Part shown: piece after piece, positions 8,434 to 46,197 of the stretch
Numbering within the stretch: position 1 is the stretch's first letter
How the letters are laid out: every line of letters starts with the position of its first letter
NCBI GenBank assembly: GCA_963716145.1
Contig: OY970292.1
Location: forward strand, 1,095,404-1,142,061
Direction of reading: 5' to 3'
Length of the DNA: 46,658 bases
Origin: Candidatus Levyibacteriota bacterium
GTDB lineage: Bacteria > Patescibacteriota > Microgenomatia > Levybacterales > UBA12049
Translations under genes and position numbers: made by a program
The notes under the pieces: model-generated
Seen by the model: the letters and a program-made list of their open reading frames with translations, nothing else
Databases searched by the model: none
Told to the model about the DNA's origin: nothing

Positions 8434-8521
8434 TTCAGAGTTTAGAGTTCAGAATTAAGAATTAAGTTTTTAAATAATACTTAAAAATTCTAAATTCATA
8501 ATTATAGATTCTGAATTTAAA
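8434..8521. repeat. Two opposed 7-nt-period arrays in the rpoC-rpsL spacer
   Basis: Array 1 at 8434-8468: TTCAGAG TTTAGAG TTCAGAA TTAAGAA TTAAGTT. Array 2 at 8487-8521: ATTCTAA ATTCATA ATTATAG ATTCTGA ATTTAAA. The second is roughly the reverse complement of the first (about 24/31 by hand). Confidence 0.8.
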
Positions 8522-8523
8522 TA

Positions 8524-8532
8524 TGTTATAAT
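8524..8532 (+). promoter_or_regulatory. Extended -10 promoter element for rpsL-rpsG
   Basis: TGtTATAAT at 8524-8532 matches TGnTATAAT exactly. An AGAGGA Shine-Dalgarno lies at 8544-8549 and the ATG at 8559. Confidence 0.5.
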
Positions 8533-8558
8533 ACAAAAAATTAAGAGGATAATAAACT

Positions 8559-8993
8559 ATGCCGACACTATCACAATTAGCAAAAAGAGGAAGAAGCAAG
8601 AGAGTAAAAAAAACCAAATCAACTGCGCTTAAAACACTTTTTAACGCGAAGGAGAGAAAGTATAAGAGTTTTACATCGCCGCAAAAACGAGGGGTGGTTA
8701 CTCTTGTTAAAACGATGACTCCCAAAAAGCCAAATTCCGCTCTTAGGAAAGTTGCCAGAATCAAGCTCTCCAATAAAATGGAGGTTACAGCTTATATTCA
8801 AGGAGTTGGACACACACTTTCCGAGCACGGAATTGTTTTGGTCCGGGGTGGCCGCGTCCGTGACTTGCCGGGTGTAAAATATCATTTGGTAAGGGGAAAA
8901 TTTGATCTATTGGGAGTTGATAAAAGAAAGACTTCACGAAGTATTTACGGAACAAAATCAGACAAAGGAGGAAGTAAAGCCGCTACTGCGTAG
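8559..8993 (+). CDS. rpsL: 30S ribosomal protein S12
   Basis: [12 protein letters not shown]...[17 protein letters not shown]...[19 protein letters not shown]; canonical S12 sequence and length (144 aa). Confidence 0.97.
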
Positions 8994-8999
8994 CGGAAA

Positions 9000-9047
9000 T
9001 TCAGAGTTTAGAGTTCCGAATTTTAAATTCATAATTATAAATTCTTT
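9000..9047. repeat. 7-nt-period array in the rpsL-rpsG spacer, duplicating both arms of the 8434-8521 element
   Basis: TTCAGAG TTTAGAG TTCCGAA TTTTAAA TTCATAA TTATAAA TTCTTT. 9000-9020 matches 8434-8454 at 20/21. 9024-9043 matches 8491-8510 at 19/20. Confidence 0.85.
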
Positions 9048-9521
9048 ATGAGACACAAAAAAGTTACAAAAAGAATAACAGCACCTGACACTATTTATAA
9101 CGACGTAATGGTTGCGAAGCTTATAAATTACATCATGCGCGATGGTAAAAAAACAGTTGCTCAGACTCAAATTTATAATGCATTTGAGCTACTCGCCAAA
9201 AAAGGAGAAGACCCGATGAAAATTTTTGAGCGGGCAATCGCGCAGGTCGGACCAAAGGTTGAAGTTAAAGCTAGAAGAGTTGGGGGAGCAAATTATCAAG
9301 TTCCGATTGAGGTAAAGGCCGAACGGAGAATGTCGCTAGCACTCAGATGGCTTATTGAAGCCGCATCAAAAAGATCCAACAAGGAGTTTCATACATTTGC
9401 CGAGAAATTGGCTGCTGAGATCTGGGATGCGACACAAAATCTTGGTGAAGCAGTTAAAAAGCGCGAAGTCGCCCTCAAACAAGCAGAGGCAAACAAAGCT
9501 TTCTCAAGTTTCAGGTGGTAA
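9048..9521 (+). CDS. rpsG: 30S ribosomal protein S7
   Basis: DTIYNDVMVAKLINYIMRDGKKTVAQ...RRVGGANYQVPIEV...ALRWLI...; canonical S7, 157 aa. Confidence 0.97.
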   Translation: MRHKKVTKRITAPDTIYNDVMVAKLINYIMRDGKKTVAQTQIYNAFELLAKKGEDPMKIFERAIAQVGPKVEVKARRVGGANYQVPIEVKAERRMSLALRWLIEAASKRSNKEFHTFAEKLAAEIWDATQNLGEAVKKREVALKQAEANKAFSSFRW

Positions 9522-9530
9522 GCCTCAATA

Positions 9531-10214
9531 TTACTTCAAATTCCAAGTTTTAATAATTTTACGTCTCTTAAGAACAGCGTTGCATGTAAGTAGGGTAACT
9601 GAGTCAACGATATAAGGCTCTATTGATATAGATGAGGATAAATCTTCAAGTTTTCGTCTAAACTTATCTGATGGTTTAGAAAAACGTGCAAGAGTCATAT
9701 TACTAAAAAAATATTGTGAGTTACTATATTGTTTATCATCTGGTATGTTGTCTTCATTTAATCTCCCATCTAAATCCATGACTATTTTATCCAATTCCGG
9801 ATCTGTAGTTCCAATTAGCGCAAGGTTATTTGGAAATAGCAATAAACGGTAAAAATAGATTTTAAACTTTTGATGAGTTGGAATAATTTTTGAAAAAATC
9901 TTCTCTGCTTTTGAGACTACATCAGATGTGAAATGAGGAGGGTCATTTATTATCCGTACGCTTTTGATAGTCATGTGCAGAGAATCACTTGGGTAGTAAT
10001 AATAATTAGATTCAATTTCTTTTAACGAGTTAATAATTTCATAAGCCCTAGCGATCAAACTCGCTTTTGGCAAATGAATACTAGTAAGACAAATTCTAGA
10101 ATCATTTTCATAATCCTCAATGGGAGAAACAGTACTAAAATTTAATGAATTGTTATTTACCTGTTTTTCAATCTCATTTATTACTTCAATTTGTTTCTGT
10201 TGATGGTGTGTCAT
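9531..10214 (-). CDS. 2H phosphoesterase superfamily (LigT/ThpR-like) protein with a degenerate second motif
   Basis: The first HxTx motif is SLHMTIKSV. The second position reads FFSNMTLARF, which resembles H-I-T-L-A-R of LigT but has Asn in place of His. Family assignment rests on motifs only. Confidence 0.4.
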   Translation of the reverse strand: MTHHQQKQIEVINEIEKQVNNNSLNFSTVSPIEDYENDSRICLTSIHLPKASLIARAYEIINSLKEIESNYYYYPSDSLHMTIKSVRIINDPPHFTSDVVSKAEKIFSKIIPTHQKFKIYFYRLLLFPNNLALIGTTDPELDKIVMDLDGRLNEDNIPDDKQYSNSQYFFSNMTLARFSKPSDKFRRKLEDLSSSISIEPYIVDSVTLLTCNAVLKRRKIIKTWNLK

Positions 10215-10341
10215 TATCTAAATTATATCATTGTATTATATTTTTGTATCATCATATCCCTGGGGTGGTATAGCTTTATACCTTTTTAATCAATATTATG
10301 ATCAGTATGCAGGTATATTGGTAATACAAATTATTTGTTTC

Positions 10342-10373
10342 TATTCTAATATTCTATAGAATTATAGAATAGA
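10342..10373. repeat. 32-nt near-palindromic repeat, copy 1 (upstream of the Fic gene)
   Basis: TATTCTAATATTCTATAGAATTATAGAATAGA. It contains the perfect palindrome ATTCTATAGAAT. 31/32 identical to 11435-11466. Confidence 0.9.
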
Positions 10374-10390
10374 TAAATTGTGGCTTCGGA

Positions 10391-10430
10391 AATATCTGGT
10401 AATATTAGGCAATATCTGGTAATATCTGGA
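10391..10430 (+). promoter_or_regulatory. Four phased 10-bp direct repeats directly upstream of the Fic start codon (candidate operator or iteron-like site)
   Basis: AATATCTGGT AATATTAGGC AATATCTGGT AATATCTGGA, then tATG (10432). The period is exactly 10 bp. Confidence 0.5.
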
Positions 10431-10431
10431 T

Positions 10432-11418: not shown

Positions 11419-11434
11419 TATTCTGTTAAACTAG

Positions 11435-11466
11435 TATTCTAATATTCTGTAGAATTATAGAATAGA
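11435..11466. repeat. 32-nt near-palindromic repeat, copy 2 (downstream of the Fic gene; possible bidirectional terminator)
   Basis: TATTCTAATATTCTGTAGAATTATAGAATAGA, 31/32 identical to 10342-10373. It lies between the convergent Fic and cyclophilin genes. Confidence 0.9.
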
Positions 11467-11474
11467 CGTAGAAT

Positions 11475-12143
11475 TTACTCAGTGATAATCCCGAGGATTT
11501 TGTCTCCTATTTTGATTCTACTCACTACGTCCATTCCGCTGGTGACTATTCCGAAATTGGTGTATTGGCCATTTAACCAATCAGCATCTTTTGTTGTTAT
11601 GAAAAATTGAGAATCATTTGAGATCCGCGCGCCTTGACCTATTTGCATATCACTTGAAGCTGCCATGCCCAATGAGCCTTCAATAAATGGTTTTGAATTC
11701 AATTCTGTTTGGATAGCATTCCCCCCAGTACCTTTTCCAGCTGGATCTCCTCCTTGAACTACCCAGTCTTCAACCCTATGAAATATTAATCCCTTATAAA
11801 AATTACTTTTTGACTTACCTATAAAATTTGCAACTGTTTTTTGTGCCTCTTTGCCAAAAAGAGTAACAGAAATGTCGCCTTTACTTGTTTTTATAACTGC
11901 TGAGACAGATGCATTTATAGGTCCCTGTATTGCTGTTTGAGGAGCTTGCTGCTGCTGTTGAGCTGCTTGGTTGTTTGCCCCAGGTGCTTGAGAAATAAAC
12001 TCTAGCTTATCGCCAGATGCCGGAAGAGACGGGGTTTGGCCAAGTGTGTCAACTTTGGTTATAGAATCTTTCTGCGTAATGTAAACTATCCCTATAAATA
12101 TTGAAATTATAGTTAATAGAATTAAAACGTGAAATTTGTTCAT
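11475..12143 (-). CDS. Cyclophilin-type peptidyl-prolyl cis-trans isomerase with N-terminal membrane anchor
   Basis: N-terminal TM MNKFHVLILLTIISIFIGIVYI. Cyclophilin core ...TVANFIGKSK..FYKGLIFHRVEDWVVQGGDPAGKGTGG...SNDSQFFITT. Confidence 0.85.
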   Translation of the reverse strand: MNKFHVLILLTIISIFIGIVYITQKDSITKVDTLGQTPSLPASGDKLEFISQAPGANNQAAQQQQQAPQTAIQGPINASVSAVIKTSKGDISVTLFGKEAQKTVANFIGKSKSNFYKGLIFHRVEDWVVQGGDPAGKGTGGNAIQTELNSKPFIEGSLGMAASSDMQIGQGARISNDSQFFITTKDADWLNGQYTNFGIVTSGMDVVSRIKIGDKILGIITE

Positions 12144-12196
12144 AAGTTATTTAATTTAAAAAAGTGACTTCATTCTACCACAAAAAATGATAATTT

Positions 12197-12795: not shown

Positions 12796-12889
12796 ATTTC
12801 TAATTTCTAATTTCTAATTTCAAAAGATTAAACTTAGCCTTAAAATAATTAGAAATTTGATATTTGAAATTGGTATTTATTTGAAATTT
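12796..12889. repeat. Opposed 7-nt-period arrays in the divergent promoter region
   Basis: (ATTTCTA)x3 plus ATTTCAA at 12796-12823. TTAGAAA TTTGATA TTTGAAA TTGGTAT TTATTTG at 12849-12883 is in the opposite orientation (AATTAGAAATT versus AATTTCTAATT). Confidence 0.8.
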
Positions 12890-13543: not shown

Positions 13544-13546
13544 AAT

Positions 13547-15006: not shown

Positions 15007-15035
15007 TATAAAGTATTAAGAAGTAAGTATAAAGT
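15007..15035. repeat. 7-nt-period array, 5' arm flanking the four-helix-bundle gene
   Basis: TATAAAG TATTAAG AAGTAAG TATAAAGT fills the whole gap between TAG (15004-15006) and ATG (15036). Confidence 0.8.
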
Positions 15036-15410
15036 ATGAACGGATCTAAAATAAAATCTTTTACAGATCTCATTACTTGGCAAAAAGCACATGCATTAGT
15101 GCTTATTATATACAAATTTACAAACGCATTCCCTAGAACAGAGACTTATTCATTAATTGATCAAATGAGAAGATCAGCTATTTCAATAACTAGTAATATT
15201 GCGGAGGGATTTTCTAGAAAAAGTAAAAAAGAAAAAATGCAATTTTATTATATGGCCCTTGGATCTACTACAGAGCTTCATAGCCAATTGATATTGTCAA
15301 AAGACTTGGGATATTTAAAGCAAGCAGAATTTTATGGAGTTATAGAAAAAATAGTTGAAGTAAATAAATTAATAAATAGTTTAATTAAGAGTTCTCAAAG
15401 TTATACTTAA
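15036..15410 (+). CDS. Four-helix-bundle protein (23S rRNA intervening-sequence protein / Avd-like family)
   Basis: FTDLITWQKAHALVLIIYKFTNAFPRTETYSLIDQMRRSAISITSNIAEGFSR...ALGSTTELHSQLILSKDLGYL is the typical family signature; 124 aa. Confidence 0.85.
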   Translation: MNGSKIKSFTDLITWQKAHALVLIIYKFTNAFPRTETYSLIDQMRRSAISITSNIAEGFSRKSKKEKMQFYYMALGSTTELHSQLILSKDLGYLKQAEFYGVIEKIVEVNKLINSLIKSSQSYT

Positions 15411-15440
15411 TACATACTACTTTATACTTAATACTTTATC
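15399..15440. repeat. 7-nt-period array, 3' arm flanking the four-helix-bundle gene
   Basis: TACTTAA TACATAC TACTTTA TACTTAA TACTTTA. ACTTTATACTTAATACTTTAT is the reverse complement of the 5' arm apart from a 7-nt gap. Confidence 0.8.
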
Positions 15441-16706: not shown

Positions 16707-16728
16707 GTTTATTTAATAGAATCAGGAA

Positions 16729-18753
16729 TCATGAATTAGGGATTGTTTTTTTAAATTTTAGATAGATTAATCCCGTGAGTATTATAACTAAAGAAGTTAA
16801 ACTTATTATAACACCAATATCGACCCATTTTTGAGGCGTGTAATAAACTTCAAAGCTGTAATTTCCGGTCTTTGGTAAAATAAAACTATTAAACCCTTCG
16901 TAGTTCTTGGTTCTTGGTTCTTGGTTCTTGGTTCCACGAAGACTCCATCCAGGATCATAACCTTCAGCAAATACTAAAGTGCTATTTTTTTGTGCATTTT
17001 TTAAATTAACAATATATTTTGTTGGATTAATATATTTATAGTCTATTTTCATGTTTGGTTGGGGGCTCCAGAAGTGATCTTTGGGATCAGTAACTTCATA
17101 AACCCCGATCCTACCAAATCCATCAATTCTCTTTAGCCAAGGGATAGAATTTATTTCTTTTAATGTTTCTAGATATGATTTTTCATCGTACTTTCTATCC
17201 GTGAGGAAAATTTCCCCCATGCTGTCGTAAGGAACAATTATATATTTAACAGATGCTTCTTGTAGCACCTTTAAGGTTTCCCCTTTTTTTAATATTGCTA
17301 TATCTTCTTTGGGTGAATTTAATTTGAATAAGTCATTTGCAGGAATTGATGGATGATTATTTGAAAAGAAAGCAAACCTTTGTATTTGCGGGATCCAGAT
17401 CGTTCTATAAAACTTTTTATCTGAGGAAATAAATTTTTCTAATTTTATATATTCATTGGGAATTTGTACAGATTTAAATGTTCCCCCGAGTTCGCCAAGT
17501 AGGGCAGGGGAAGTAAGAAGTAAGAAGTAAGAGGTAAGAAGTAAGATGAAAAGATTTTGAAATTTGAAATTTGAAATTTGAAATTTTTGTTGAACCTTCA
17601 ACCAATTATATATTTGGGAAATGCTGTAGGGAATTAGTATTGAATAAGAAATGGCAATCAACGTATACCATTTTGTTGGATCTCTGAACATTAAGAAGCC
17701 TGGAACATGTTCAAACAGCCATAGATATAAGCCGCCAAATGGCTCCTGAGCTCCTTTTGCTAGAAAAGCACCTATCAGGCCCAAGATGGCAAAATACAAT
17801 AAATTGTTTTTGGTTCTCTGGTCTTTGGTTTTAGTAATAAAAAAAAGACTGCTAAATGCTAGAATTGGTAGAGTTAAAAATTCAGGTTTCATGAAATATG
17901 TTTTACCAAAAATATTCTCAGGCCAGTTGGGATGTAAAAGAGAAATTGTATTTTCGAGCTTTGCAAAACTGAAAAATTTTACAGCATCAATTGAGGAGTA
18001 AGCAGAACCCAGTTTTTTAATAGGATTTTGATTAACTAAAACTGTCGGTAAAATCCAAAAGAAGTTAAGAAGTACTAAGGTAGCTAATGGGGTTAGCAGC
18101 GATAAAATATATTTTAATGGCTTTCTAAATTGCTTGGTTATGAAGAAATAAATTATAAGCGCGGTTATCGTAATGTATAAAAACCGGATATCAAAAATAG
18201 CCTCAATACTTAAAGCTAATCCTAAGGATAATAATTTTTTAAATTCTATTTCGTTAGAGTCAAAAATATCAATAAAAATACTTAGTATCAAAGGAGAAAG
18301 AGCATAAGCCATCGCCACTCCTAATATCTGTCCACCTCCTATAACCATCAGGATATATATGTTAAATGTGTAAATAAAAGCCGCCAAGAGAGAAAAATCG
18401 TTTTTCGGCATTATTTTTTTATAAAGTGTGATTGATGAATAAATAGAAATAATTAGCAGTGGGAATAAATAATATATTCTTTCAATAACGCTCCAATGCA
18501 GGCCCAAGAATTCGCCTAAGAAAGTTATGGGAATACCTATGTTAAAAAATATCCATAACAAGGGAGCTGAAAATGCTCCCATACCCATCCCCAAATTCAT
18601 ATCCCATGCATAAAGAGGAAATGAATAGAGGGGATACATTGATTTATAATAAGGCCAGAAATCACCTCCTGTAATAACTCCAGGCAAAAACCACGGACTA
18701 TATACAACATAGATAATGAGTAAAGAAATAAAGTAATAAATTTTTGTTTTCAT
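16729..18753 (-). CDS. Large polytopic membrane protein, GT-C-like glycosyltransferase candidate, with C-terminal extracytoplasmic domain and terminal TM
   Basis: 674 aa. About 12 or more hydrophobic helices are followed by a soluble ~250-aa domain and a final TM. The N-terminal GGDFWPYY loop resembles the acidic first loop of GT-C enzymes. Architecture-based call. Confidence 0.4.
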   Translation of the reverse strand: MKTKIYYFISLLIIYVVYSPWFLPGVITGGDFWPYYKSMYPLYSFPLYAWDMNLGMGMGAFSAPLLWIFFNIGIPITFLGEFLGLHWSVIERIYYLFPLLIISIYSSITLYKKIMPKNDFSLLAAFIYTFNIYILMVIGGGQILGVAMAYALSPLILSIFIDIFDSNEIEFKKLLSLGLALSIEAIFDIRFLYITITALIIYFFITKQFRKPLKYILSLLTPLATLVLLNFFWILPTVLVNQNPIKKLGSAYSSIDAVKFFSFAKLENTISLLHPNWPENIFGKTYFMKPEFLTLPILAFSSLFFITKTKDQRTKNNLLYFAILGLIGAFLAKGAQEPFGGLYLWLFEHVPGFLMFRDPTKWYTLIAISYSILIPYSISQIYNWLKVQQKFQISNFKFQNLFILLLTSYFLLLTSPALLGELGGTFKSVQIPNEYIKLEKFISSDKKFYRTIWIPQIQRFAFFSNNHPSIPANDLFKLNSPKEDIAILKKGETLKVLQEASVKYIIVPYDSMGEIFLTDRKYDEKSYLETLKEINSIPWLKRIDGFGRIGVYEVTDPKDHFWSPQPNMKIDYKYINPTKYIVNLKNAQKNSTLVFAEGYDPGWSLRGTKNQEPRTKNYEGFNSFILPKTGNYSFEVYYTPQKWVDIGVIISLTSLVIILTGLIYLKFKKTIPNS
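16903..16937. repeat. (GTTCTTG)x4 heptad array inside a CDS
   Basis: GTTCTTG x4 then GTTCCAC. On the coding strand it gives ...NQEPRTKNYEGF. Confidence 0.9.
17511..17584. repeat. (AAGTAAG)x5 and (TTGAAAT)x4 heptad arrays inside a CDS
   Basis: 17511-17545: AAGTAAG x5 (one AGGTAAG). 17557-17584: TTGAAAT x4. They encode ...KFQISNFKFQNLFILLLTSYFLLLTS... in the minus-strand ORF. Confidence 0.9.
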
Positions 18754-29805: not shown

Positions 29806-31026
29806 TCAATGTTGCAATATAACCTTTTTTATGAGCCTAATGCTTTCTTTTACCGAATTTTCCCAAGTAGCAGTCTTTACTGCTTTCAATCCGTTTTCCT
29901 GAAGGTTTTTATACTTGGATTTATCATTTATGAGTTTTACCGCCTCAGAATACAAACTTTGTGGAGTATTCTTATCAAGAATAATGCCCGTCACATTGTC
30001 TTGAACAGTATCGCGCAGTCCTGGAACATTATACACAATTGACGGAGTCTTTTGGGAGGCTGCTTCATGAACTGTTAATCCCCATCCTTCGTGAACGGAA
30101 GGAATAAGCAATATATGCGCTTTTGCCAATAATTCATATTTTCTTTCCTGATTTACAAACCCAAAAAACTTAACTGAAGAAGACAGATTGTATTTTTGTA
30201 TTTTTGATTTAACAGATCCAATAATTTCGTCATCTCCCGATCCCACAATCCACAGGACGGGTTCTTGGTTCTTGGTTCTTGGTTCTTTGGTCTTGGTTCT
30301 TGGCTCTTTGGAGCTACCAGGATCTAAGACCTTTGAGCTAAGATCTTTCTTAATCAAGGAGAATGCTTCAATGGCATCATAGATTCCTTTTTGTTTATTA
30401 AGTCTTGCAAGATAGATAAAAGTAGGATTTTTTTCTTTAGGATATTTTTTAAGACTTTTTGGAATATTTATTCCCATTTTTAATACAGTTATTTGGCTCG
30501 GATTTATCCCTTCTTTAATTAAATCTTTTTTGGTTGACTCAGAAATAGTCATTGTCGGCACGTTTCTGTAAATACGCAAATATATTTTTTCAATTGCTCT
30601 AAAAATAAGTGCAACCGGATAGGGGAACAATCTGAAAAATAATTTGCTTGCAGTCTCACAGATCAGAGCGATAGTCTTTTTGCGGGCATAAATTGCGCTG
30701 AAAAATGGAAACCAGTGCACCTCATCGATGATGATGTCTATATTTTTTTTGTTTTTTAAATAATAAAAAAAAGCCAAAAAATGAACATTCCACCAATCTC
30801 CTCGTCTTATAAACTGAACACTGTCAATAGTCTCCTTTTTTTTTGCTCCCGAGAACATTGAACTAAAAACCAAGACCTCGTACCCTGCATTGGTCCATCC
30901 CTTAGCTAATTCATGAGTAAGAATTTCAGCACCTCCTCCTGCCGGATTTTTTATATCCCGCCAGTTCAATATTAAAATCCGAACGATTTTAGTATTGAAG
31001 TTCTTGGTTCTTGGTTCATGGTTCAT
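29806..31026 (-). CDS. GT4 family glycosyltransferase carrying heptad-array-derived N-terminus and interdomain insert
   Basis: Core ILILNWRDIKNPAGGGAE...SVHEGWGLTVHEAASQKTPSIVYNVPGLRD. The N-terminus MNHEPRTKN and the linker SSKEPRTKTKEPRTKNQEP are encoded by GTTCTTG-type arrays. Confidence 0.85.
   Translation of the reverse strand: MNHEPRTKNFNTKIVRILILNWRDIKNPAGGGAEILTHELAKGWTNAGYEVLVFSSMFSGAKKKETIDSVQFIRRGDWWNVHFLAFFYYLKNKKNIDIIIDEVHWFPFFSAIYARKKTIALICETASKLFFRLFPYPVALIFRAIEKIYLRIYRNVPTMTISESTKKDLIKEGINPSQITVLKMGINIPKSLKKYPKEKNPTFIYLARLNKQKGIYDAIEAFSLIKKDLSSKVLDPGSSKEPRTKTKEPRTKNQEPVLWIVGSGDDEIIGSVKSKIQKYNLSSSVKFFGFVNQERKYELLAKAHILLIPSVHEGWGLTVHEAASQKTPSIVYNVPGLRDTVQDNVTGIILDKNTPQSLYSEAVKLINDKSKYKNLQENGLKAVKTATWENSVKESIRLIKKVILQH
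30261..30311. repeat. Seven-copy GTTCTTG-type heptad array inside the GT4 interdomain linker
   Basis: GTTCTTG x3, GTTCTTT, GGTCTTG, GTTCTTG, GCTCTTT. Confidence 0.9.
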
Positions 31027-31072
31027 AATTGCTTGAGCGTATTCCTAAGACCCAAGATCAAAGATCTACGAC
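31000..31072. repeat. Opposed heptad arrays with only a 17-nt centre (empty version of the four-helix-bundle cassette site)
   Basis: 31000-31027: GTTCTTG GTTCTTG GTTCATG GTTCATA, which contains the GT4 start codon. 31045-31072: CTAAGAC CCAAGAT CAAAGAT CTACGAC, which contains the GT2 stop codon. The second arm uses the same four words as 33517-33544. Confidence 0.8.
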
Positions 31073-33091: not shown

Positions 33092-33493
33092 TTAGGTCTT
33101 GGTTTCTAGGTCTTGGTTTCTAGGTCTTTGGTCTATTGTATTTTTTTTAAGATAAGTAATTAGTCCATTTATTAGTCTGCCTGTTTTATTTGCTTGTTCC
33201 ATTAGTTCTTGATATTTTTGTTCGTCAATAAAATCTAAGTCTCTAGCCAATAATAAATGATATTTAGTTTCCTCCAAGGATCCTCTAGCTTGATAGCAAT
33301 ACTGAACATATTCTTTTCTATAAGCTCTCGCACTTCCTTCAACTAGGTTGGCTGCTACAGAACTTACAGAGCGGCATACTTGATCAATTAATCTAAATTT
33401 TTCATCATTTGGAAATATATTTACAATTTTGTATATCATCAACACTAGCTTATGCGCCTCTTTCCATGCTTCCAGCTTTTCAAAATTATTCAT
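33092..33493 (-). CDS. Four-helix-bundle protein (23S rRNA intervening-sequence protein / Avd-like family), second copy
   Basis: MNNFEKLEAWKEAHKLVLMIYKIVNIFPNDEKFRLIDQVCRSVSSVAANLVEGSAR...ARGSLEETKYHLLLARDLDFI. The C-terminal tail DQRPRNQDLETKT is encoded by the heptad array. The ORF track starts at upstream TTG 33511. Confidence 0.85.
   Translation of the reverse strand: MNNFEKLEAWKEAHKLVLMIYKIVNIFPNDEKFRLIDQVCRSVSSVAANLVEGSARAYRKEYVQYCYQARGSLEETKYHLLLARDLDFIDEQKYQELMEQANKTGRLINGLITYLKKNTIDQRPRNQDLETKT
33095..33136. repeat. Heptad array (14-nt unit GGTCTTG GTTTCTA x2.5), 3' arm of the second four-helix-bundle cassette
   Basis: GGTCTTG GTTTCTA GGTCTTG GTTTCTA GGTCTTT GGTCTAT. Confidence 0.85.
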
Positions 33494-33516
33494 TATTTTG
33501 TAATTATTCAAAAAAA

Positions 33517-33547
33517 CAAAGAACTAAGATCTACAATCCAAGAACTC
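33517..33547. repeat. Heptad array in opposite orientation, 5' arm of the second four-helix-bundle cassette
   Basis: CAAAGAA CTAAGAT CTACAAT CCAAGAA. Its reverse complement matches 33095-33120 at about 19/26. It contains the stop codon of the upstream GT4 gene. Confidence 0.8.
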
Positions 33548-34616
33548 GCTGATACGTTTTTATCGTATCAGCGGCTGTTTTCTTCCACGTAAATTTTTGA
33601 GCTTGTTCGAGTCCTTTTTCCGAGAGCCGCGTTCGCAGTTTGGAATCTTCAAAAACTTCAGCAATACCATCAGCAATGCTTTTTATATCGTACGCGTCTA
33701 TGTAGAATGCTGCATCTCCAGCTACTTCGCGAATAGATCCTTCTTTGGAAGTTACAACCGGGCAGCCGGATTGCATTGCTTCAAGAATTGGCAAACCAAA
33801 GCCTTCATACAGGCTTGGCATTGCAAAGACAGTTGCAAGATTATAAAGAGTAATTAAATCCTCAGTGGGAACAAAACCCAATGCGCGCGTATTGGTATTT
33901 TCTGAAATTAGTTTTTGCGCTTCTACCAAATCCTGATTCCAGGGATTTTTCTTATCAAAATTGGTCTCGGTTAAAGTTTTTCCAACCATCACTAAGGGAG
34001 CATTTATTTCATTTGCCGCTCGGATAAGTCTTGGAAGGTTTTTGTTCCAAGTTGCGTCACCAACGTACAGGACAAATTTGGGGGGAAGTTTGTATTTGGT
34101 TTTTAGTTCTTGGATCTTAGTTTTTGGGCGACCGTTCTCCGAAGATCTATGATCTAAAACCTGGAATTCTTTTCCTGCTGCAAGATATACTACATCAATT
34201 TTATCGGCATTGATCTTTGCGTATTTGCTAATGTCTTTTTTTGATGATTCCGAATCAGTCAGAATCCGGTCAGATCCTGAAAGATTGAGCTTTTGAATCT
34301 GCCACTTAATTTTGCCTTTAAAGCCCGATGGGAAATGGTCTGGAAATACCAGAGGAGTTAGGTCGTGTACCGTAACAACTTTTTTATATTTTTCAAAAAA
34401 GGGGAGTGTCAAAAAAAACGGTTCAAAATAGGGATAGTGAATTAATTCAACTGATTTATCAAGTTGCCCCCCACTCGAAAAGAAAATATACTCATTCTCA
34501 GGAAAAAATTCTAAAAGCGCATTCTTGAGATTTTGCAGATAAAAGCCTGTTCCGCGCACTCTGTGACTTAAGATTCTATTATCGTTAAGCGGTGATACAT
34601 CTATAGCTATTTTCAT
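33531..34616 (-). CDS. GT4 family glycosyltransferase
   Basis: FAMPSLYEGFGLPILEAMQSGCPVVTS (EX7E region); 361 aa. A degenerate heptad-like stretch at about 34088-34135 encodes SENGRPKTKIQELKTK. Confidence 0.85.
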   Translation of the reverse strand: MKIAIDVSPLNDNRILSHRVRGTGFYLQNLKNALLEFFPENEYIFFSSGGQLDKSVELIHYPYFEPFFLTLPFFEKYKKVVTVHDLTPLVFPDHFPSGFKGKIKWQIQKLNLSGSDRILTDSESSKKDISKYAKINADKIDVVYLAAGKEFQVLDHRSSENGRPKTKIQELKTKYKLPPKFVLYVGDATWNKNLPRLIRAANEINAPLVMVGKTLTETNFDKKNPWNQDLVEAQKLISENTNTRALGFVPTEDLITLYNLATVFAMPSLYEGFGLPILEAMQSGCPVVTSKEGSIREVAGDAAFYIDAYDIKSIADGIAEVFEDSKLRTRLSEKGLEQAQKFTWKKTAADTIKTYQRVLGL

Positions 34617-41988: not shown

Positions 41989-42426
41989 TTATCGGGTTTT
42001 TATCTCTCTTTTGTTGTCTCCCAGATATTCAAAATATAAATTTATTCTTTTTTTTGGTAGGATTTTCTCAATCTTTTCCGGCCATTCTATGGCTACTATG
42101 TTTGATTTATCATTTAAAATTTCTTTAAGTCCCAATCCCTCAACGTCTTTTTCGCTCTCTATTCTATAAAGATCTATATGGTAAAAATTCTTGATTCTTG
42201 ATTCTTGCTTCTTAATTCTTATGTCATATTTCCGGACAATTATAAAAGTAGGTGAAATAATTTTGCTTTTGATTCCCAAACCCTTTGCAAATCCTTGAAC
42301 GAATGTTGTTTTACCGGATCCCAAATTTCCATATAGAGCAAGAGTCGATCCACTTTTTAGATTTTTTCCTAAATTAAATCCCAATTCCTGAGTCTCTGAA
42401 AATTTATTAGTTTTGTGGATTTGCAT
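41989..42426 (-). CDS. tsaE: tRNA threonylcarbamoyladenosine biosynthesis ATPase TsaE, with a heptad-array insert
   Basis: [24 protein letters not shown]...[10 protein letters not shown]...YHIDLYRI. The start is taken at MQIHKTNKF (42426). Confidence 0.85.
42187..42221. repeat. ATTCTTG-type heptad array inside tsaE
   Basis: ATTCTTG x3, CTTCTTA, ATTCTTA. It encodes [12 protein letters not shown] between the SPTF and HxDLYR motifs. Confidence 0.9.
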
Positions 42427-43246: not shown

Positions 43247-43310
43247 TTAATAATAAGATATAAATGTCCGGATTTACAATAGAGTGTTTTGGGAGCAAAT
43301 CCCCAACGAG

Positions 43311-44507
43311 TTAGTGAGCGTAGTTAACGTGAAGATAAAAAGTATCTAAGCCATCTTCCGTATGATGCACTCTCACGTATTGAAGTCTGCAGCCGCCATT
43401 TCCGGTGTAGCTTCCTTGAAATAAGGTTCCCGCCTTAACGGCTCTTACTAAAGAAGATGGACCGCTAATATCCAGCCCATTATGGAAGGAGTAAAACGAA
43501 GCACCCGATGACGCAAAACTTGTATTGCCGTATCCCTGATTAAATTGTATGGGAGCGCTAATGGGCCAATCCCAGCTACCACTTGGATTCCAGGGATCAC
43601 CTGATTGATTACTGTGATCAATATCTTTTAATTTACTGAATGGATTCAAAGTACTGCCCCCGCTACTTACAGTAAAATGAAGATGGGTACCACTTGAATT
43701 GCAAGAGGCTCCTTGTTTAATCGTTGCAATCATATCGCCCTGATTTACAGATCCGACTTCTCCCTCATTTCCTCGGCCTGAAACAATTCCCTGTATAGCC
43801 TCAAATTCTGCTTTTGTTTCAGCCAAAAGAGTTTGGTAATTTGCCTCACTTCCTTTTGTTTCCTGCAGCAAGTTTTGCTTTTTCTGTTTATCCAGATCAA
43901 GCTGCTTTGTGTAACTTTCCAGTTGAGTTTTGAGCGCCTCAATCTTTTGCTTTTTATCCTCAAATATATTTTTTTGATTTGCGTAGTCATTTCTTGCTTG
44001 TTGCGCATTATACATTAGGCGTTTATCATGCTCTTGAACTATTTTGAGATAGTTGGCCCGCTTAATAAGATTTGATATATCGCTTGATGATGCAAGAACG
44101 TGGATAGGTTCAATACCTCCAACTTCATAGGTTGTAATAATTCTGTTAATTAGAACTTTACTGACACTACTGAGGGAGCTTTCAAGATTTTCCACTCTTT
44201 TGGTTGCGGAATCAATATCAAGCGTAAGATCATTAATTTGCTGTTTATTGAAGTCTATGCGGGCTTCAGTAAGCTTGATCTGGTTGTCCATCACGCCTAT
44301 TTGAGAGGAAAGTGAATTTTCCTGCGATTTAAGATCTGAAATTTTGGACTCCAGTTCTGCTATCTTTTTACTTAAATCACTTACTTTCTGAGATTTATCG
44401 GGAGCAGAGGTTGGTGTCGGGGTTGTTGTTTGTCCATATACGAATGGGATTGCAAAAAACCACAAGAAAGCTAAAGCGACGAGTAATTTAGGAAATCTCT
44501 TTTTCAT
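43311..44507 (-). CDS. Coiled-coil plus M23/LytM-family metallopeptidase (EnvC/FtsEX-partner-like); catalytic motifs in permuted order
   Basis: Signal peptide MKKRFPKLLVALAFLWFF, about 230 aa of coiled coil, then GTHLHFTV (HxH) before FHNGLDISG (HxxxD). The start is taken at ATG 44507 to avoid overlap with ftsX. Confidence 0.75.
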   Translation of the reverse strand: MKKRFPKLLVALAFLWFFAIPFVYGQTTTPTPTSAPDKSQKVSDLSKKIAELESKISDLKSQENSLSSQIGVMDNQIKLTEARIDFNKQQINDLTLDIDSATKRVENLESSLSSVSKVLINRIITTYEVGGIEPIHVLASSSDISNLIKRANYLKIVQEHDKRLMYNAQQARNDYANQKNIFEDKKQKIEALKTQLESYTKQLDLDKQKKQNLLQETKGSEANYQTLLAETKAEFEAIQGIVSGRGNEGEVGSVNQGDMIATIKQGASCNSSGTHLHFTVSSGGSTLNPFSKLKDIDHSNQSGDPWNPSGSWDWPISAPIQFNQGYGNTSFASSGASFYSFHNGLDISGPSSLVRAVKAGTLFQGSYTGNGGCRLQYVRVHHTEDGLDTFYLHVNYAH

Positions 44508-44529
44508 ATTGAACACAGACTCTTTTATT

Positions 44530-45396
44530 TTACTTAAGATACCGGAGAACCGCAAGGAAGCTTGCCAGAACACCCAAACCAATTGCGATAGAAAGTTCGG
44601 CTAAAAGAAGACCAACTAAAAATAGGGGAGATACCGGAAGAATTGGAATTCCTTTTAGAAAAGATTCAAGATACGGTGATGCGTATAGCAAGCCCGCGGA
44701 TGCAATAAGCCAGCCCATGAGTGTCCCGACTGCTCCATAAAAGATTCCTTCAAACATAAACGGTGTGCGTATATACCAGTTAGTTGCGGACAAAAGTTTC
44801 ATAATTTCTATCTCATCTCTTTTAAGGGATACCTTAAATCCGATTACCATCATCATAATAAATATGGAGACAAGGGCCAAAACAACAATTATAGAAGTAC
44901 CGATTATCCTAACAGCATTAGTCCACTTACTCAGAGTTGACACGATATCTTTCTGATAGATTACTTCTGAAACAATAGGGGAGCCTTTAAGCGCATCGGA
45001 AACTGATGCCAAATCATCTATGCGCAGGGTGGAGATTTCCAGGGATGAAGGCAATATATCAGCAGTTACAAGATCCAAAAGCAAAGGATCGTTTTTATTT
45101 TGCTCTTTGTAGATCTGAAGGGCTTCTTTTTTGGAAACAAAACGGACAGATGATATTTTACCGGTACGTTTTAAATTATTTTCCAGCAGCGTTATTTCTT
45201 CCGGTTTTGCTTCATCTTTGAAAAAAGCAGTAACTTGGGGCTTTGACTCAAAATATCTAATTACAACGGAGAAGCCGAAAACAATAAATGAGAATACGGA
45301 TATTGAAAGAAAAGTAAGCATCATTATGAAAACAGCAGTTAAGGCTTGATATGGGGTCCTTCTGATTTGCTTCCAGGTGGTTTTAATTATTTTCAT
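44530..45396 (-). CDS. ftsX: Cell division ABC transporter permease FtsX
   Basis: 288 aa. N-terminal TM, a periplasmic loop of about 100 aa, and three C-terminal TMs. It overlaps the ftsE stop by 4 nt. Confidence 0.85.
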   Translation of the reverse strand: MKIIKTTWKQIRRTPYQALTAVFIMMLTFLSISVFSFIVFGFSVVIRYFESKPQVTAFFKDEAKPEEITLLENNLKRTGKISSVRFVSKKEALQIYKEQNKNDPLLLDLVTADILPSSLEISTLRIDDLASVSDALKGSPIVSEVIYQKDIVSTLSKWTNAVRIIGTSIIVVLALVSIFIMMMVIGFKVSLKRDEIEIMKLLSATNWYIRTPFMFEGIFYGAVGTLMGWLIASAGLLYASPYLESFLKGIPILPVSPLFLVGLLLAELSIAIGLGVLASFLAVLRYLK

Positions 45397-46076
45397 TTTT
45401 CTTGCTTTTCTTCTCTTTTTTTATCGTCAACAATCTTTCCTTTTTCAAGGACGATTACTCGCTTTAAGAGACTATTCACAATATCAGTATTATGCGTAGC
45501 CATGATTACTGTAGTGCCGCTTTTATTAATGTCTTGAAGTAATTTAACAATTTCCCATGAAGTTGTTGTATCCAAATTTCCCGTTGGTTCATCAGCCAAA
45601 ATTATTTCCGGAGAGAAAGCGAGAGCCCTGGCAATAGCAGCTCTCTGAAGCTCGCCTCCCGAGAGTTGTATCGGAAATTTATCTTTGTGATCAAGTATTC
45701 CTACTTGTTCAAGTATTTCCTCAATTCTTTTTTTGGCTTTTTCCTCATCAGCATGACCAACTTCCAGAGGCAGAAGAATATTTTCAAAGATCGTTCTATC
45801 TCTTAATAATTTCAAATCTTGGAAAATTACACCTATACTTTTTCTCAGATGCGGAATATGCTTTTTGGCGAGATTTACAATATCCCATTCCCCGATATGT
45901 ATACTTCCGCTTGTTGGCGTCATCTCACGAGTTATCAGACGGAATAACGTTGTTTTACCCGAACCTGAAGGGCCAACGACAAAGACAAATTCTCCTTTAT
46001 CGATAGAAAATGTAATGTCATCTAAAGCAGTACTTCCGGTTGGGAATGATTTTGTGATATTTTGAAGCTTTATCAT
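45393..46076 (-). CDS. ftsE: Cell division ATP-binding protein FtsE
   Basis: Walker A GPSGSGKTT, signature LSGGELQR, Walker B ILADEPTGNLD, H-loop ATHN; 227 aa. Confidence 0.9.
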   Translation of the reverse strand: MIKLQNITKSFPTGSTALDDITFSIDKGEFVFVVGPSGSGKTTLFRLITREMTPTSGSIHIGEWDIVNLAKKHIPHLRKSIGVIFQDLKLLRDRTIFENILLPLEVGHADEEKAKKRIEEILEQVGILDHKDKFPIQLSGGELQRAAIARALAFSPEIILADEPTGNLDTTTSWEIVKLLQDINKSGTTVIMATHNTDIVNSLLKRVIVLEKGKIVDDKKREEKQEK

Positions 46077-46088
46077 GTTTCAAAAAAC

Positions 46089-46197
46089 AATTTTTAATTT
46101 TCAGTTCTCAATTTTCATTGAATTTTCAATGACTAAATGTTTAAAAATTAAAACATTGTGATTTGATTGAAAATTGTAAATTTCAAATTGAAAATTA
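46089..46197. repeat. Opposed 7-nt-period arrays upstream of ftsE
   Basis: 46096-46130: AATTTTC AGTTCTC AATTTTC ATTGAAT TTTCAAT. 46160-46197: GATTTGA TTGAAAA TTGTAAA TTTCAAA TTGAAAA, in roughly reverse-complement orientation. Confidence 0.75.

Follow-up and report, generated by a model that had tools for sequence, protein, structure and literature searches.

Heptamer arrays in the window

The window analysed here, a 46,658-nt stretch of contig OY970292.1 (Candidatus Levyibacteriota), carries rpoC, rpsL, rpsG, tsaE, genes of the GT2, GT4 and GT4b types and two PF05635/TIGR02436 genes (IVP, Avd-like), among which lie tandem arrays of 7-nt units. Do these arrays exceed chance? A self-match scan returned from 8 (strict) to 17 (relaxed) period-7 arrays, as opposed to fewer than one in dinucleotide shuffles and 0–7 at other non-multiple periods. 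At a cut-off of at least 18/21, period 7 gave 8 arrays and period 14 gave 7, with none at the remaining periods of 4–15 and none in the shuffles (n = 40); at least 16/21 gave 13 (shuffle mean 0.25; other non-multiple periods 0–2), and at least 15/21 gave 17 (shuffles 0.88; other non-multiple periods 0–7). Tandem Repeats Finder (TRF) made period-7 calls at nearly all loci listed in a preliminary description of this DNA:

TRF, period 7: 8432–8466, 8485–8522, 12795–12821, 12847–12871, 15005–15037, 15403–15436, 16903–16934
TRF, period 7: 17510–17546, 17556–17586, 30260–30308, 31000–31024, 42187–42220, 46166–46196
TRF, reported as period 14: 33093–33128

Both methods thus bear out the tandem heptamers described there, and the signal stands well clear of the shuffles, the comparison on which that description had said it could fall. 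Two arrays, 16717–16746 and 34089–34122, come on top of the earlier list. Four others (8487–8521, 31045–72, 33517–47 and 46096–130) show weak self-match (0.57–0.71) and are the complementary partners of stronger arrays. The majority of arrays in the window form inverted pairs, and arm-to-arm duplexes are stronger than in shuffles, with z-scores of −5.8 (8.4 kb), −3.1 (12.8 kb), −5.3 (15.0/15.4 kb), −3.3 (33.1/33.5 kb) and −5.2 (46.1 kb); the pair at 31.0 kb (z −1.8) is the sole weak one among the opposed pairs that had been taken for potential hairpins. Array words within the window are related beyond composition, 30 word pairs lying within one mismatch of each other against 8.9 ± 2.9 for letter-shuffled words, which agrees with the recurrent word families noted before, and the placement at gene borders, in divergent spacers and in frame within genes is as claimed.

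Arrays of this kind might also arise as artefacts of sequencing or of long-read metagenome assembly. Indeed, rpoB, rpoC and lepA are frameshifted in the window, whose rpoC region differs from contig L001 of Logan, an independent short-read assembly, by 15 single-base indels and about 100 mismatches. Yet over positions ~8300–16930 L001 is identical to the window, the arrays from 8.4 to 16.9 kb matching base for base; unrelated assemblies and finished cyanobacterial plasmids together contain hundreds of equivalent arrays; and reading frames are preserved across in-gene arrays. The identity with L001 and the arrays in unrelated assemblies and finished plasmids refute this reading, whose chance of being right we put close to nil.

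Two array pairs bracket IVP genes

Two array pairs, 15007–15440 and 33092–33547, exactly bracket the IVP genes:

15007..15035, + strand: 5′ arm of IVP cassette 1 (TATAAAG/TATTAAG/AAGTAAG units)
15036..15410, + strand: IVP gene 1 (124 aa, PF05635/TIGR02436, four-helix bundle, Avd-like)
15399..15440, + strand: 3′ arm of IVP cassette 1 (CTTAATA/CTTTATA units)
33092..33136, − strand: 3′ arm of IVP cassette 2 (GGTCTTG/GTTTCTA on the + strand)
33092..33511, − strand: IVP gene 2 (133–139 aa, PF05635/TIGR02436)
33517..33547, − strand: 5′ arm of IVP cassette 2

At both genes the arrays fill the intergenic gaps exactly, and we show that the arms are complementary to each other; the terminal stem appears in the MFE as well as the centroid fold of either cassette. 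The 5′ arm of cassette 1 spans the entire gap from the upstream stop codon to the IVP ATG, while its 3′ arm overlaps the IVP stop codon and adjoins the stop of the convergent GT2 gene. IVP gene 1 matches PF05635 with 126.9 bits (cutoff 33.8) and TIGR02436 with 121 bits, the closest solved structure being 2GSC (XCC0516). In cassette 2, the 3′ arm encodes the IVP stop together with a 14-aa C-terminal tail that is missing in the paralog, and ends 3 nt upstream of the following gene's ATG; the 5′ arm supplies the upstream GT4b gene with its last codons and stop. The two IVPs are just 39% identical and have different arm words, giving no sign of recent copying, and no transposase, reverse transcriptase or integrase was found near the cassettes.

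Array pairs without an ORF

The remaining pairs enclose no ORF or, in one case, a host gene:

8434..8468, + strand: left arm of ORF-less hairpin, directly 3′ of the rpoC stop codon (TTCAGAG/TTAAGAA units)
8487..8521, + strand: right arm of the same hairpin (ATTCTAA/ATTCTGA units)
9000..9047, + strand: array in the rpsL–rpsG spacer, a direct copy of the 8434 words, inverted relative to 8487–8521
12796..12883, divergent intergenic spacer: ORF-less inverted pair, (ATTTCTA)n at 12796–12823 and (TTTGAAA)n at 12849–12883
31000..31072, − strand: ORF-less inverted pair spanning the GT2 stop and GT4 start (arms 31000–31027 and 31045–31072)
46096..46197, upstream of ftsE: ORF-less inverted pair, AATTTTC units at 46096–46130 and ATTGAAA units at 46160–46197

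The hairpin at 8430–8525, which separates the rpoC stop from a TATAAT-like box 5′ of rpsL, has a fold of −23.2 kcal/mol (z −4.9). Its right arm is complementary to 9000–9047 too, so that rpsL is itself bracketed by inverted arms (z −4.4). In relatives, the rpoC–rpsL spacer holds a heptamer hairpin in some and none in others. Fold z-scores are about −2 on both strands for the pair at 12.8 kb and −2.5 for that at 46.1 kb, within which the short-read contig L170 ends. In the closest relative, L181, the GT2/GT4 junction carries a full IVP cassette, with whose arms those of the window pair share homology; the hairpin is also present in L167, and L169 has overlapping genes without an array.

Arrays inside genes

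Single arrays also lie within coding sequences:

16717..16746, − strand: degenerate array at the 3′ end of a gene for a 674-aa membrane protein
16903..16937, − strand: in-frame (GTTCTTG)4.6 array, coding strand CAAGAAC, encoding NQEPRTKN
17511..17584, − strand: two adjacent in-frame arrays, (AAGTAAG)5 at 17511–17545 and (TTGAAAT)4 at 17557–17584
30261..30311, − strand: in-frame (GTTCTTG)7 array in the interdomain linker of the GT4 glycosyltransferase, encoding KEPRTKTKEPRTKNQEP
34089..34122, − strand: degenerate in-frame array in GT4b, encoding PKTKIQELKTK
42187..42221, − strand: in-frame (ATTCTTG)5 array in tsaE

In-gene arrays add exact steps of 7 residues (21 nt). The membrane protein with the adjacent arrays, which have no mutual complementarity and no fold, is exactly 7 residues longer than its ortholog in L168, and TsaE exceeds both B. 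subtilis TsaE and the L169 ortholog by exactly 7. The GT4 segment is missing in most homologs and exactly 7 aa shorter in the closest one, P0002; GT4b is 7–8 residues longer than its orthologs, the surplus falling within the array segment. The array at 16903..16937, inside which the short-read contig L001 ends, is stop-free in every frame.

Arrays across the candidate phyla radiation

How general is the layout? We surveyed 79 candidate-phyla-radiation (CPR) loci chosen by IVP gene and 80 metagenome relatives selected by rpsL. Period 7 accounted for 240 arrays in the former (any other non-multiple period, at most 27) and for 37 in the latter (at most 12). Since arrays also occur outside the window, the restriction to it that had been named as grounds for giving up the preliminary description does not hold. 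In the CPR loci, a heptamer array lay within about 100 nt of the IVP gene in 72/79 and on both sides in 50/79, and array density was 7.6–8.0/kb within 100 nt of the gene as opposed to 0.13–0.52/kb beyond; 110 of 113 periodic IVP flanks had period 7. Median arm duplex energy was −32 kcal/mol, against −18 for shuffled arms (z < −3 in 55/79). Stems were found in 69/79 loci, with a median of 28 bp and 86% Watson–Crick pairing, and polarity was conserved, the upstream arm being purine-rich in 51/59. Gaps between adjacent inverted pairs were bimodal, with 18 at 0–60 nt (ORF-less hairpins) and 39 at 340–460 nt (the size of an IVP ORF); in one locus (L021) a truncated IVP remnant lay between the arms. 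On the sense strand of the 69 stems, G:U mismatches were exactly as frequent as A:C mismatches (55 each). These stems hence bear no RNA-specific signature, and their complementarity could be maintained at the DNA level. Most arrays have no adjoining IVP gene (216/344 in the IVP-selected loci, 62/62 in the rpsL-selected loci, where no IVP gene was found); IVP cassettes are therefore the densest context of the arrays, not the sole one.

This last point is what one would expect if the arrays were ordinary long simple sequence repeats (SSRs), produced by polymerase slippage favouring 7-nt units, functionless and tolerated mainly in spacers, with IVP genes merely inserting by preference into arrays or the loops of hairpins. 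An excess of heptamer SSRs in many bacteria has been published, with slippage as its explanation. Copy number changing by whole units, word turnover at orthologous sites and the symmetric mismatches, which fit DNA-level processes, likewise speak for slippage, as does the ORF-less hairpin being the GT2|GT4 state common to the window and L167. Slippage alone, however, leaves unexplained the complementary pairing (79 inverted versus 30 direct pairs), the words shared between distant loci and between genomes (AAGTATT 21 times, AAGAATC 16 times), the conserved purine-rich-upstream polarity and the ~30-fold enrichment, in six phyla, exactly at the two ends of genes of a single family. We consider it unlikely as the whole explanation.

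Elements at variable positions between relatives

A synteny comparison of eight genomes (the window beside L167, L168, L169, L181, L182, L183 and L184) found three sites for the cassette: GT4b|flippase (the window), GT2|GT4 (L181) and epimerase|GT4b (L168, L182, L184). L167, L169 and L183 lack it. IVP gene 2 does not occur at the orthologous GT4b–flippase junction in L167, L168, L169, L182, L183 or L184. L169 has overlapping ATGA junctions at the cassette sites, and L167 has a single AGTATTA array whose first nucleotide coincides with that of the 5′ arm of cassette 2. The comparison shows that the elements have been inserted where genes otherwise adjoin closely or overlap, and that relatives differ in where they carry them. 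As for the GT2|GT4 junction, where the arms of the ORF-less hairpin match those of the L181 cassette, it fits either course of events: entry of an ORF into a hairpin already in place, or loss of the ORF from a cassette. Units are 9 nt long in L182 and L184 and 8 nt in Gemmatirosa, so the strict 7-nt period asserted earlier holds for the window genome but not for every genome.

Alternatively, the arrays might be host cis-regulatory RNA hairpins or protein-binding repeats (for termination, insulation, 3′-end stability or translation tuning), with IVP as a regulated or regulating client. Array positions coincide exactly with stop and start codons, a hairpin recurs at the rpoC–rpsL site of the 8.4-kb element in several relatives, inverted arms bracket rpsL, and purine-rich upstream arms resemble Shine–Dalgarno sequences; for the TAACTGA repeats published for Beggiatoaceae, cyanobacteria and Bacteroidetes, translational regulation and binding of the 7-nt unit by cold-shock proteins have been proposed. 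In many close relatives, however, these junctions carry no element and the genes overlap, so operon function does not depend on the elements. Moreover, words differ freely at orthologous sites, arrays also lie within coding regions without a regulatory hairpin, the stems show no RNA-strand asymmetry and the arrays match no Rfam family. A host cis-regulatory role appears quite improbable to us.

A probable dispersed family of IVS-like hairpins

What, then, are the arrays? Probably, they are hairpin elements resembling intervening sequences (IVSs), with or without an ORF, plus remnants of these: heptamer arrays would be the building blocks of a dispersed hairpin family, kin in kind to the ORF-carrying IVSs of rRNA. 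A complete element would comprise a 5′ arm of about 4–8 tandem heptamers, purine-rich on the sense strand and abutting the start codon, a ~120-aa ORF of the PF05635/TIGR02436 family (IVP, S23p, Avd-like four-helix bundle) and a 3′ arm of reverse-complement heptamers overlapping the stop codon. The window would hold two of these (15007–15440 and 33092–33547), along with arm pairs reduced to short hairpins at 8.4, 12.8, 31.0 and 46.1 kb and, as another context, arms around the host gene rpsL; single in-gene arrays would persist solely as stop-free words, in 21-nt (7-codon) steps. Upon transcription, the arms may pair into a ~28-bp stem, which RNase III, as demonstrated in other phyla for 23S IVSs including that of Coxiella, would cut, freeing the insert from the host transcript. 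Slippage of units and arm-to-arm correction could let arrays grow, shrink and change their word. Function and spread mechanism, given as unknown in the preliminary description, can thus be narrowed, because many arrays are arms of IVS-like cassettes.

Comparison with known systems

Heptamer hairpins bracket the IVP family, that of the “23S rRNA intervening-sequence” four-helix-bundle protein, in the window genome and in at least five other bacterial phyla, among them cyanobacteria rich in short tandemly repeated repetitive (STRR) sequences. The layout recurred, with unrelated words, in 6/6 loci of a first plasmid batch (Nostoc punctiforme, Trichormus, PCC 7120 gamma, Calothrix, Pseudanabaena and Riemerella), with direct rather than inverted arms in Pseudanabaena (L085), and in a second batch also in Azospirillum, Aulosira, Calothrix brevissima, Geminocystis and Anabaena 90. 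The likeness to cyanobacterial STRR is therefore closer than had been claimed. Like the window arrays, STRRs are tandem 7-nt units in ~4–8 copies at many dispersed loci, mainly intergenic, near gene ends and often in inverted pairs; words of STRRs and heptamer SSRs vary with lineage, and ORFs tolerate arrays in stop-free orientation. STRR-type arrays on cyanobacterial plasmids bracket IVP genes as well, an association with PF05635 not described in the literature searched. Heptamers are indeed known from heterocystous cyanobacteria, as stated earlier, yet are not unique to cyanobacteria, GGGAATC repeats having been published for Xanthomonas. Unlike STRRs, the window arrays reside in a CPR/Patescibacteria genome of about 1.14 Mb, and their words are AT-rich (AAGWATN, CAAGAAC) and are none of STRR1–3.

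Diversity-generating retroelements (DGRs) offer a second comparison: PF05635 is the commonest Pfam adjoining their reverse transcriptases, and IVP is homologous to Avd, a DGR accessory protein, with sub-threshold matches to NF033474 and PF22296. Its scores, however, lie far above threshold for TIGR02436 and PF05635 and below it for Avd, and neither among the window ORFs nor beside the cassettes was a reverse transcriptase gene seen. REP/REPIN elements and their RAYTs resemble the window elements in being short, dispersed intergenic hairpins made from inverted repeat pairs, with a gene itself flanked by inverted repeats and many ORF-less copies per genome. In contrast to RAYT, IVP, a ~120-aa four-helix bundle, shows no HUH/Y1 transposase features; tandem heptamers make up the arms in place of a conserved 20–40-nt palindrome; and where each REP family has one RAYT, here several divergent IVP copies carry different arm words.

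The S23p IVSs of Leptospira and Coxiella share the gene family PF05635. In Coxiella, the 23S IVS contains an S23p ORF with 2–3 GACAGAT heptamers directly upstream of its ATG, their number depending on the strain, and a 28-bp terminal stem cut by RNase III at the first repeat (PMC4990558); tandem heptamers upstream of the ATG are a further likeness to the window elements. IVP ORFs have also been reported in CPR 16S and 23S insertions. Unlike 23S IVSs, which sit in rRNA helices, the window elements are found in the spaces separating protein-coding operon genes or at the ends of such genes; both of their arms are multi-copy heptamer arrays, and derivatives without an ORF or inside genes are scattered across the genome. 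The association of hairpin arrays with IVP links two long-unexplained features.

Period-7 arrays in the window

The window had been described beforehand as carrying dispersed tandem heptamer arrays at gene borders and in frame inside genes. Tandem Repeats Finder calls period 7 at nearly all of the loci proposed, and a self-match scan, controlled by dinucleotide shuffles of the window, finds 8–17 arrays as against fewer than one in these composition-matched sequences.

Arrays found by the self-match scan, by threshold
At least 18/21: period 7, 8; period 14, 7; all others from 4 to 15, 0; shuffles, 0
At least 16/21: period 7, 13; other periods, 0–2; shuffles, mean 0.25
At least 15/21: period 7, 17; non-multiple periods, 0–7; shuffles, mean 0.88

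In total, the 46.7-kb window holds about 19 arrays, including two degenerate ones (16717–16746 and 34089–34122) that the preliminary description had missed. The proposed placement holds: 12 sit in spacers or extend over gene ends and 7 are in frame within genes. Their words are akin beyond composition, with 30 pairs at one mismatch or less, compared with 8.9 ± 2.9 for letter-shuffled words.

Could the arrays be assembly artefacts? They are not, because an independent short-read contig (L001; Logan, ERR11593400), which matches window positions 5784–16930, is identical to the window from ~8300 on, arrays included. This contig terminates within the array at 16903–16937 (window 16930), and a second overlapping short-read contig, L170, within that at 46096–46130 (window 46117). 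Since both end inside heptamer arrays, short-read assemblies from the candidate phyla radiation (CPR) break at such repeats.

Several further features of the window deserve mention. Each of the genes rpoB, rpoC and lepA is spread over several frames (1141–8433, 37819–39559), and over 5784–8300 the window's rpoC differs from L001 by 15 single-base indels and ~100 mismatches, followed by identity up to 16930. These splits do not have the look of pseudogenes; a local error in consensus or polishing, or else a strain chimera, seems likelier, restricted to highly conserved genes of the long assembly. Two non-heptamer arrays, of period 13 (10222–10249, 2.2 copies) and period 10 (10391–10429, AATATCTGGT, 3.9 copies), occupy the divergent spacer that immediately precedes a Fic-domain gene (10432–11418) and could be operator- or iteron-like repeats. 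The left edge (52–930) codes for the C-terminal portion of a nuclease-like protein of the OLD family (TOPRIM), a possible defence gene.

Two IVP cassettes in the window

Two genes of the window encode the small 23S rRNA intervening-sequence protein (IVP), a four-helix-bundle protein of PF05635/TIGR02436:

15036–15410, + strand, IVP gene 1: PF05635 126.9 bits (cutoff 33.8), TIGR02436 121 bits
33092–33511, − strand, IVP gene 2: PF05635 118.1 bits (cutoff 33.8), TIGR02436 111 bits

The nearest solved structure is XCC0516 (PDB 2GSC). Complementary heptamer arrays bracket each gene, exactly filling the gaps to the neighbouring genes and thereby forming a cassette with a 5′ and a 3′ arm. In cassette 2, the 5′ arm encodes the final codons and stop of the upstream gene, and the 3′ arm the IVP's own 14-residue tail and stop, the next gene beginning 3 nt on. 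The arm-to-arm duplexes reach z-scores of −5.3 and −3.3, and a terminal stem enclosing the ORF is found in MFE and centroid folds of both whole cassettes. Fold z-scores of the whole cassettes (−0.14 and +0.62) say nothing useful, being dominated by the ~370-nt interior; the information lies in the terminal stems alone. There are no recent copies of the IVP element and no transposase among the 10 window proteins scanned against Pfam, and Rfam and tRNA scans of the window returned no rRNA or other Rfam match and no tRNA.

Hairpins without an ORF and arrays inside genes

Opposed pairs had also been proposed as potential hairpins, and four ORF-less pairs with short spacers bear this out, one of them weakly:

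8430–8525, ORF-less hairpin: fold −23.2 kcal/mol, z −4.9
12.8 kb, ORF-less pair: z about −2 to −3
31.0 kb, weak ORF-less pair: fold z −1.3, arm duplex z −1.8
46.1 kb, ORF-less pair: fold z −2.5, arm duplex z −5.2

The array at 9000–9047 shares its words with that at 8434–8468 and is complementary to that at 8487–8521; therefore, inverted arms bracket rpsL (z −4.4).

Arrays inside genes are single, without a fold, and keep the reading frame. The perfect ones (CAAGAAC, CTTACTT, ATTTCAA) are stop-free in every coding-strand frame, the more degenerate ones at 31000, 34089 and 42187 open only in the reading frame. At its array, TsaE is longer by exactly 7 residues than TsaE of B. subtilis and likewise than its ortholog in L169, a related contig; a 674-aa membrane protein carries 7 additional residues at its TTGAAAT array relative to the ortholog in another, L168. 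The GT4 glycosyltransferase measures 406 aa, compared with ~365 aa in most of 120 homologs; it is extended at the N terminus and bears an insert in the linker, and in its closest homolog (P0002, 71%) this insert is exactly 7 residues shorter. In-gene arrays are insertions in 21-nt (7-codon) steps. A phase-variable contingency locus, where a change in unit number alters the reading frame or promoter spacing of a surface or variable gene, was considered and rejected: the arrays differ from orthologs by whole, frame-keeping 21-nt (7-aa) steps, and their hosts include tsaE and rpsL.

Within 28189–29768, a 132-aa ORF repeats the C-terminal end of the neighbouring GT4 (FGFV..KYELLAKAHILLIPSVHEGWGLT) and adjoins a gene for an AAA/DUF4143 ATPase. 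A member of this ATPase family also lies beside the GT4 ortholog of L181, the closest relative (1987–3273), and the ORF may reflect a gene split or partial duplication tied to insertion of the ATPase gene.

Arrays accompany IVP genes across the CPR

A genome-contig search with both window IVPs yielded 79 loci (1.09 Mb in total), most with titles naming Patescibacteria/CPR groups, the remainder with another or no taxon label. Arrays are not confined to the window: these loci hold 240 at period 7 as against at most 27 at any other non-multiple period, and 0.8 Mb of relatives selected by rpsL hold 37 as against at most 12, at a lower density (0 to 0.34/kb). An array lies within ~100 nt of one IVP end at 72 of the 79 loci and of both ends at 50, density being 7.6–8.0/kb within 100 nt of the gene and 0.13–0.52/kb farther off. 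Where IVP flanks are periodic, the period is 7 in 110 of 113 cases; any periodicity at all occurs in 10 of 396 control segments. Most arrays are not adjacent to an IVP gene.

The arms are complementary here as well. Their median duplex energy is −32.1 kcal/mol, compared with −18.4 for shuffled sequence and −18.7 for a direct-repeat control, with z below −3 at 55/79 loci; a stem is detectable at 69/79 (median 28 bp, 86% Watson-Crick). The 69 stems give no signal of selection at the RNA level, G:U and A:C mismatches being equally frequent (55 vs 55). Arrays adjoin the ATG and overlap the stop codon of the IVP gene, and their polarity is marked: the sense strand is purine-rich in 51 of 59 upstream arms, yet in only 16 of 62 downstream arms. 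Stops occur in all three frames in 28/59 upstream and 31/62 downstream arms. Because 7 is coprime to 3, a stop-containing heptamer unit puts stops in every frame; the idea that arms serve as three-frame stops was nonetheless set aside as speculation, AT-rich sequence giving much of this by chance.

Some words recur across genomes (AAGTATT 21 times, AAGAATC and AAGAATT 16 times each), and the window words ATTCTTG, TTAAGAA and TATTAAG fall into such recurrent classes. Neighbouring related arrays are inverted in 79 cases and direct in 30, and gaps within inverted pairs are bimodal, with 18 at 0–60 nt and 39 at 340–460 nt, the latter matching the size of the IVP ORF. In one contig (L021, 11597–11876), inverted TAGTATC/ACTAAAT arrays enclose the remnant of a truncated IVP, and an intact copy lies 1.1 kb away; the two have the first ~10 residues in common (MEPVKITSF.K), followed by unrelated sequence. 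This remnant may stand midway between full cassettes and hairpins without an ORF. No IVP relative was confirmed in viral contigs, and there is thus no evidence for phage carriage.

The elements occupy different junctions in related genomes

Does the position of the elements vary? We compared the operon epimerase, GT4b, flippase, GT2, GT4 (GT denoting glycosyltransferase genes), which is syntenic across eight genomes.

Elements at the junctions of the glycosyltransferase operon
Window: IVP cassette at GT4b/flippase; ORF-less hairpin at GT2/GT4
L181 (closest relative): IVP cassette at GT2/GT4
L168, L182, L184: IVP cassette at epimerase/GT4b
L167: no cassette; the window's ORF-less hairpin at GT2/GT4; solo AGTATTA array at GT4b/flippase
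L169: no cassette; overlapping ATGA junctions
L183: no cassette

The window's GT2/GT4 arms (GGTCGTAGATCTTTGATCTTGGGTCTTAGG ... ATGAACCATGAACCAAGAACCAAGAAC) are homologous to the cassette arms of L181, and the solo array of L167 has the same starting nucleotide as the 5′ arm in the window. Two relatives bear 9-nt-unit hairpins (AAGTTTATA / TATAAACTT) at every operon junction (L182, 4290–8040; L184, 4080–8040); each genome uses one word at all junctions, which suggests within-genome homogenisation or the spread of a single element family. The rpoC-rpsL spacer of relatives contains heptamer hairpins with other words, or nothing.

As a separate observation, the cassette 3′ arm of L168 (2622–2662) consists of units that contain ACTGA. 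Among them is TAACTGA, the heptamer that MacGregor 2015 studied in Beggiatoaceae, cyanobacteria and Bacteroidetes.

The same layout on plasmids of other phyla

A tblastn search of 72,556 plasmids with the window IVP matched only 34 records, mostly from heterocystous cyanobacteria (Nostoc 13, Calothrix 4, Trichormus 2, and one each in Scytonema, Aulosira, Anabaena and Fischerella); Riemerella, Azospirillum and Gemmatirosa are among the others. Of 16 loci inspected for array layout, ten have the IVP ORF between inverted heptamer arrays of unrelated words.

Plasmid loci with an IVP ORF between inverted heptamer arrays
N. punctiforme: GGAGTCA
T. variabilis: TCAGAAT
PCC 7120 gamma: AGGCAGA, ISL3 element between one arm and the ORF
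Calothrix 7716: GCTTTTA/TAAAAGC
Riemerella: GGTTTAA
Azospirillum: ACAGAGG
Anabaena 90: GACAGGT, about 39 copies
Aulosira, C. brevissima, Geminocystis: bracketed likewise

Pseudanabaena has arrays on either side as well, GCTAAAA upstream and GCCAAAA downstream, and these are direct rather than inverted. Exceptions also occur: Gemmatirosa kalamazoonensis plasmid 1 (L172, ~601–1050) has an 8-nt array, (CTCCTGCC)4, after the IVP homolog and similar units upstream; the arms of Picosynechococcus and Leptolyngbya are irregular purine/pyrimidine; and in Stanieria and PCC 7120 alpha the only array is downstream. With 3-kb flanks included, the two arms are the only arrays present in 4 of 6 loci.

Individual plasmids show further peculiarities. 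On pCC7120gamma (L083, 907–3418), an ISL3 transposase gene parts the 5′ AGGCAGA arm from the IVP ORF, leaving the arms 2.4 kb apart. On pANA02 of Anabaena sp. 90 (L174, 240–513), the ~39 GACAGGT units lie between cas6 and the IVP gene, with a complementary ACCTGTC array downstream. IVP ORFs between cas genes have already been reported (PMC3936711) and are found here in L174, in L085 (cas6/cas4, type I-D) and in L173 (cmr2/cmr3).

What are the arrays?

The arrays are real, their arms are complementary, and the elements are inserted, at positions that differ between relatives. Across phyla, arrays are tightly and directionally associated with IVP: in six phyla, period and polarity are conserved and sequence is not, although the 7-nt unit is not universal, 8- and 9-nt variants existing as well. 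On the best reading, the arrays are the arms and derivatives of hairpin elements resembling intervening sequences (IVSs). On the other side weigh the equal G:U and A:C counts, the majority of arrays away from IVP genes, and the absence of recent copies and of a transposase. By analogy with experiments on Coxiella and other rRNA IVSs, the arms would pair into a stem in RNA that RNase III would process.

A much bolder reading, which we entertain only tentatively and consider rather doubtful, is that arrays of the STRR type (the short tandemly repeated repetitive sequences of cyanobacteria) in CPR, cyanobacteria, Bacteroidota and Proteobacteria might all go back to a single ancient class of mobile hairpin element, as its arms, derivatives and footprints. 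Its sole gene would be that of the Avd-like four-helix-bundle protein, which might recognise, generate or mobilise nucleic acid with a 7-nt period, perhaps with host RNase III or a reverse transcriptase (RT) acting in trans. If true, IVP would be the factor long sought behind STRRs as well as behind rRNA intervening sequences that carry an ORF.

Two puzzles of ~35 years' standing, the nature and spread of cyanobacterial STRR heptamers and the role of the ORF that large intervening sequences of 23S rRNA carry, are tied together by one small gene family between inverted heptamer arrays in six phyla, and both can be tested in tractable organisms (Nostoc PCC 7120, N. punctiforme, Xanthomonas).

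For CPR genomics, the elements account for a class of intergenic filler, for 7-residue insertions in conserved proteins (TsaE, glycosyltransferases, a membrane protein) and for short-read contig breaks at array sites. They also offer an annotation rule: an IVP gene with paired arrays is an inserted cassette.

Comparison with known systems

Three systems differ from the elements in their defining parts. CRISPR arrays need 23–50-nt repeats with spacers, and the window units are 7 nt, contiguous and spacerless; integron attC sites failed on defining features. REP/REPIN-RAYT systems have an HUH/Y1 (IS200/IS605-like) transposase gene, whereas the gene flanked here encodes a four-helix-bundle protein, and no transposase family was found among 10 window proteins scanned against Pfam. 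A diversity-generating retroelement (DGR), which combines an RT and template/variable repeats with Avd, seems a less likely identity: scores on the DGR Avd models are 34.9 and 42.5, below the cutoff of 80, and no RT-like ORF stood out in the window ORF translations (the Pfam scan covered 10 window proteins).

STRRs, or heptanucleotide long SSRs, come closer. The window has head-to-tail 7-nt units above chance at many dispersed loci, mainly intergenic or at gene ends. The canonical words, reportedly STRR1 CCCCAGT, STRR2 TTGGTCA and STRR3 CAACAGT as described by Mazel et al. in 1990, differ from those of the window (GTTCTTG, AAGTAAG, TTCAGAG, ATTTCTA etc.), and instead of a heterocystous cyanobacterium the nearest relatives are Microgenomates/Levybacteria-type CPR.

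The S23p-type IVS is the other close likeness. Both window cassettes have the PF05635/TIGR02436 ORF and terminal inverted repeats that could form an ORF-enclosing stem, but they lie between protein-coding genes and not in a 23S/16S rRNA helix, and RNase III excision, which experiments show for Coxiella and other rRNA IVSs, is a prediction for the window elements. In the Coxiella 23S IVS, the S23p ORF follows 2–3 tandem GACAGAT heptamers, their number differing by strain, and RNase III cuts a 28-bp terminal stem where the first repeat begins (PMC4990558). IVP ORFs are present in CPR rRNA insertions (PMC11270868). Publications on heptamers cover their over-representation in many bacteria, TAACTGA repeats and the G-rich ones of Xanthomonas and Nostoc, none tied to IVP (PMC4679880, PMC4692102). 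Coxiella is the sole case in the openly searchable literature in which we found PF05635/four-helix-bundle genes linked to heptamer arrays, and a general STRR-IVP link appears new to that literature. The elements described here are thus both STRR-like and S23p-IVS-like but fall outside either strict definition, because their words and host differ from those of the former and they do not reside in rRNA like the latter.
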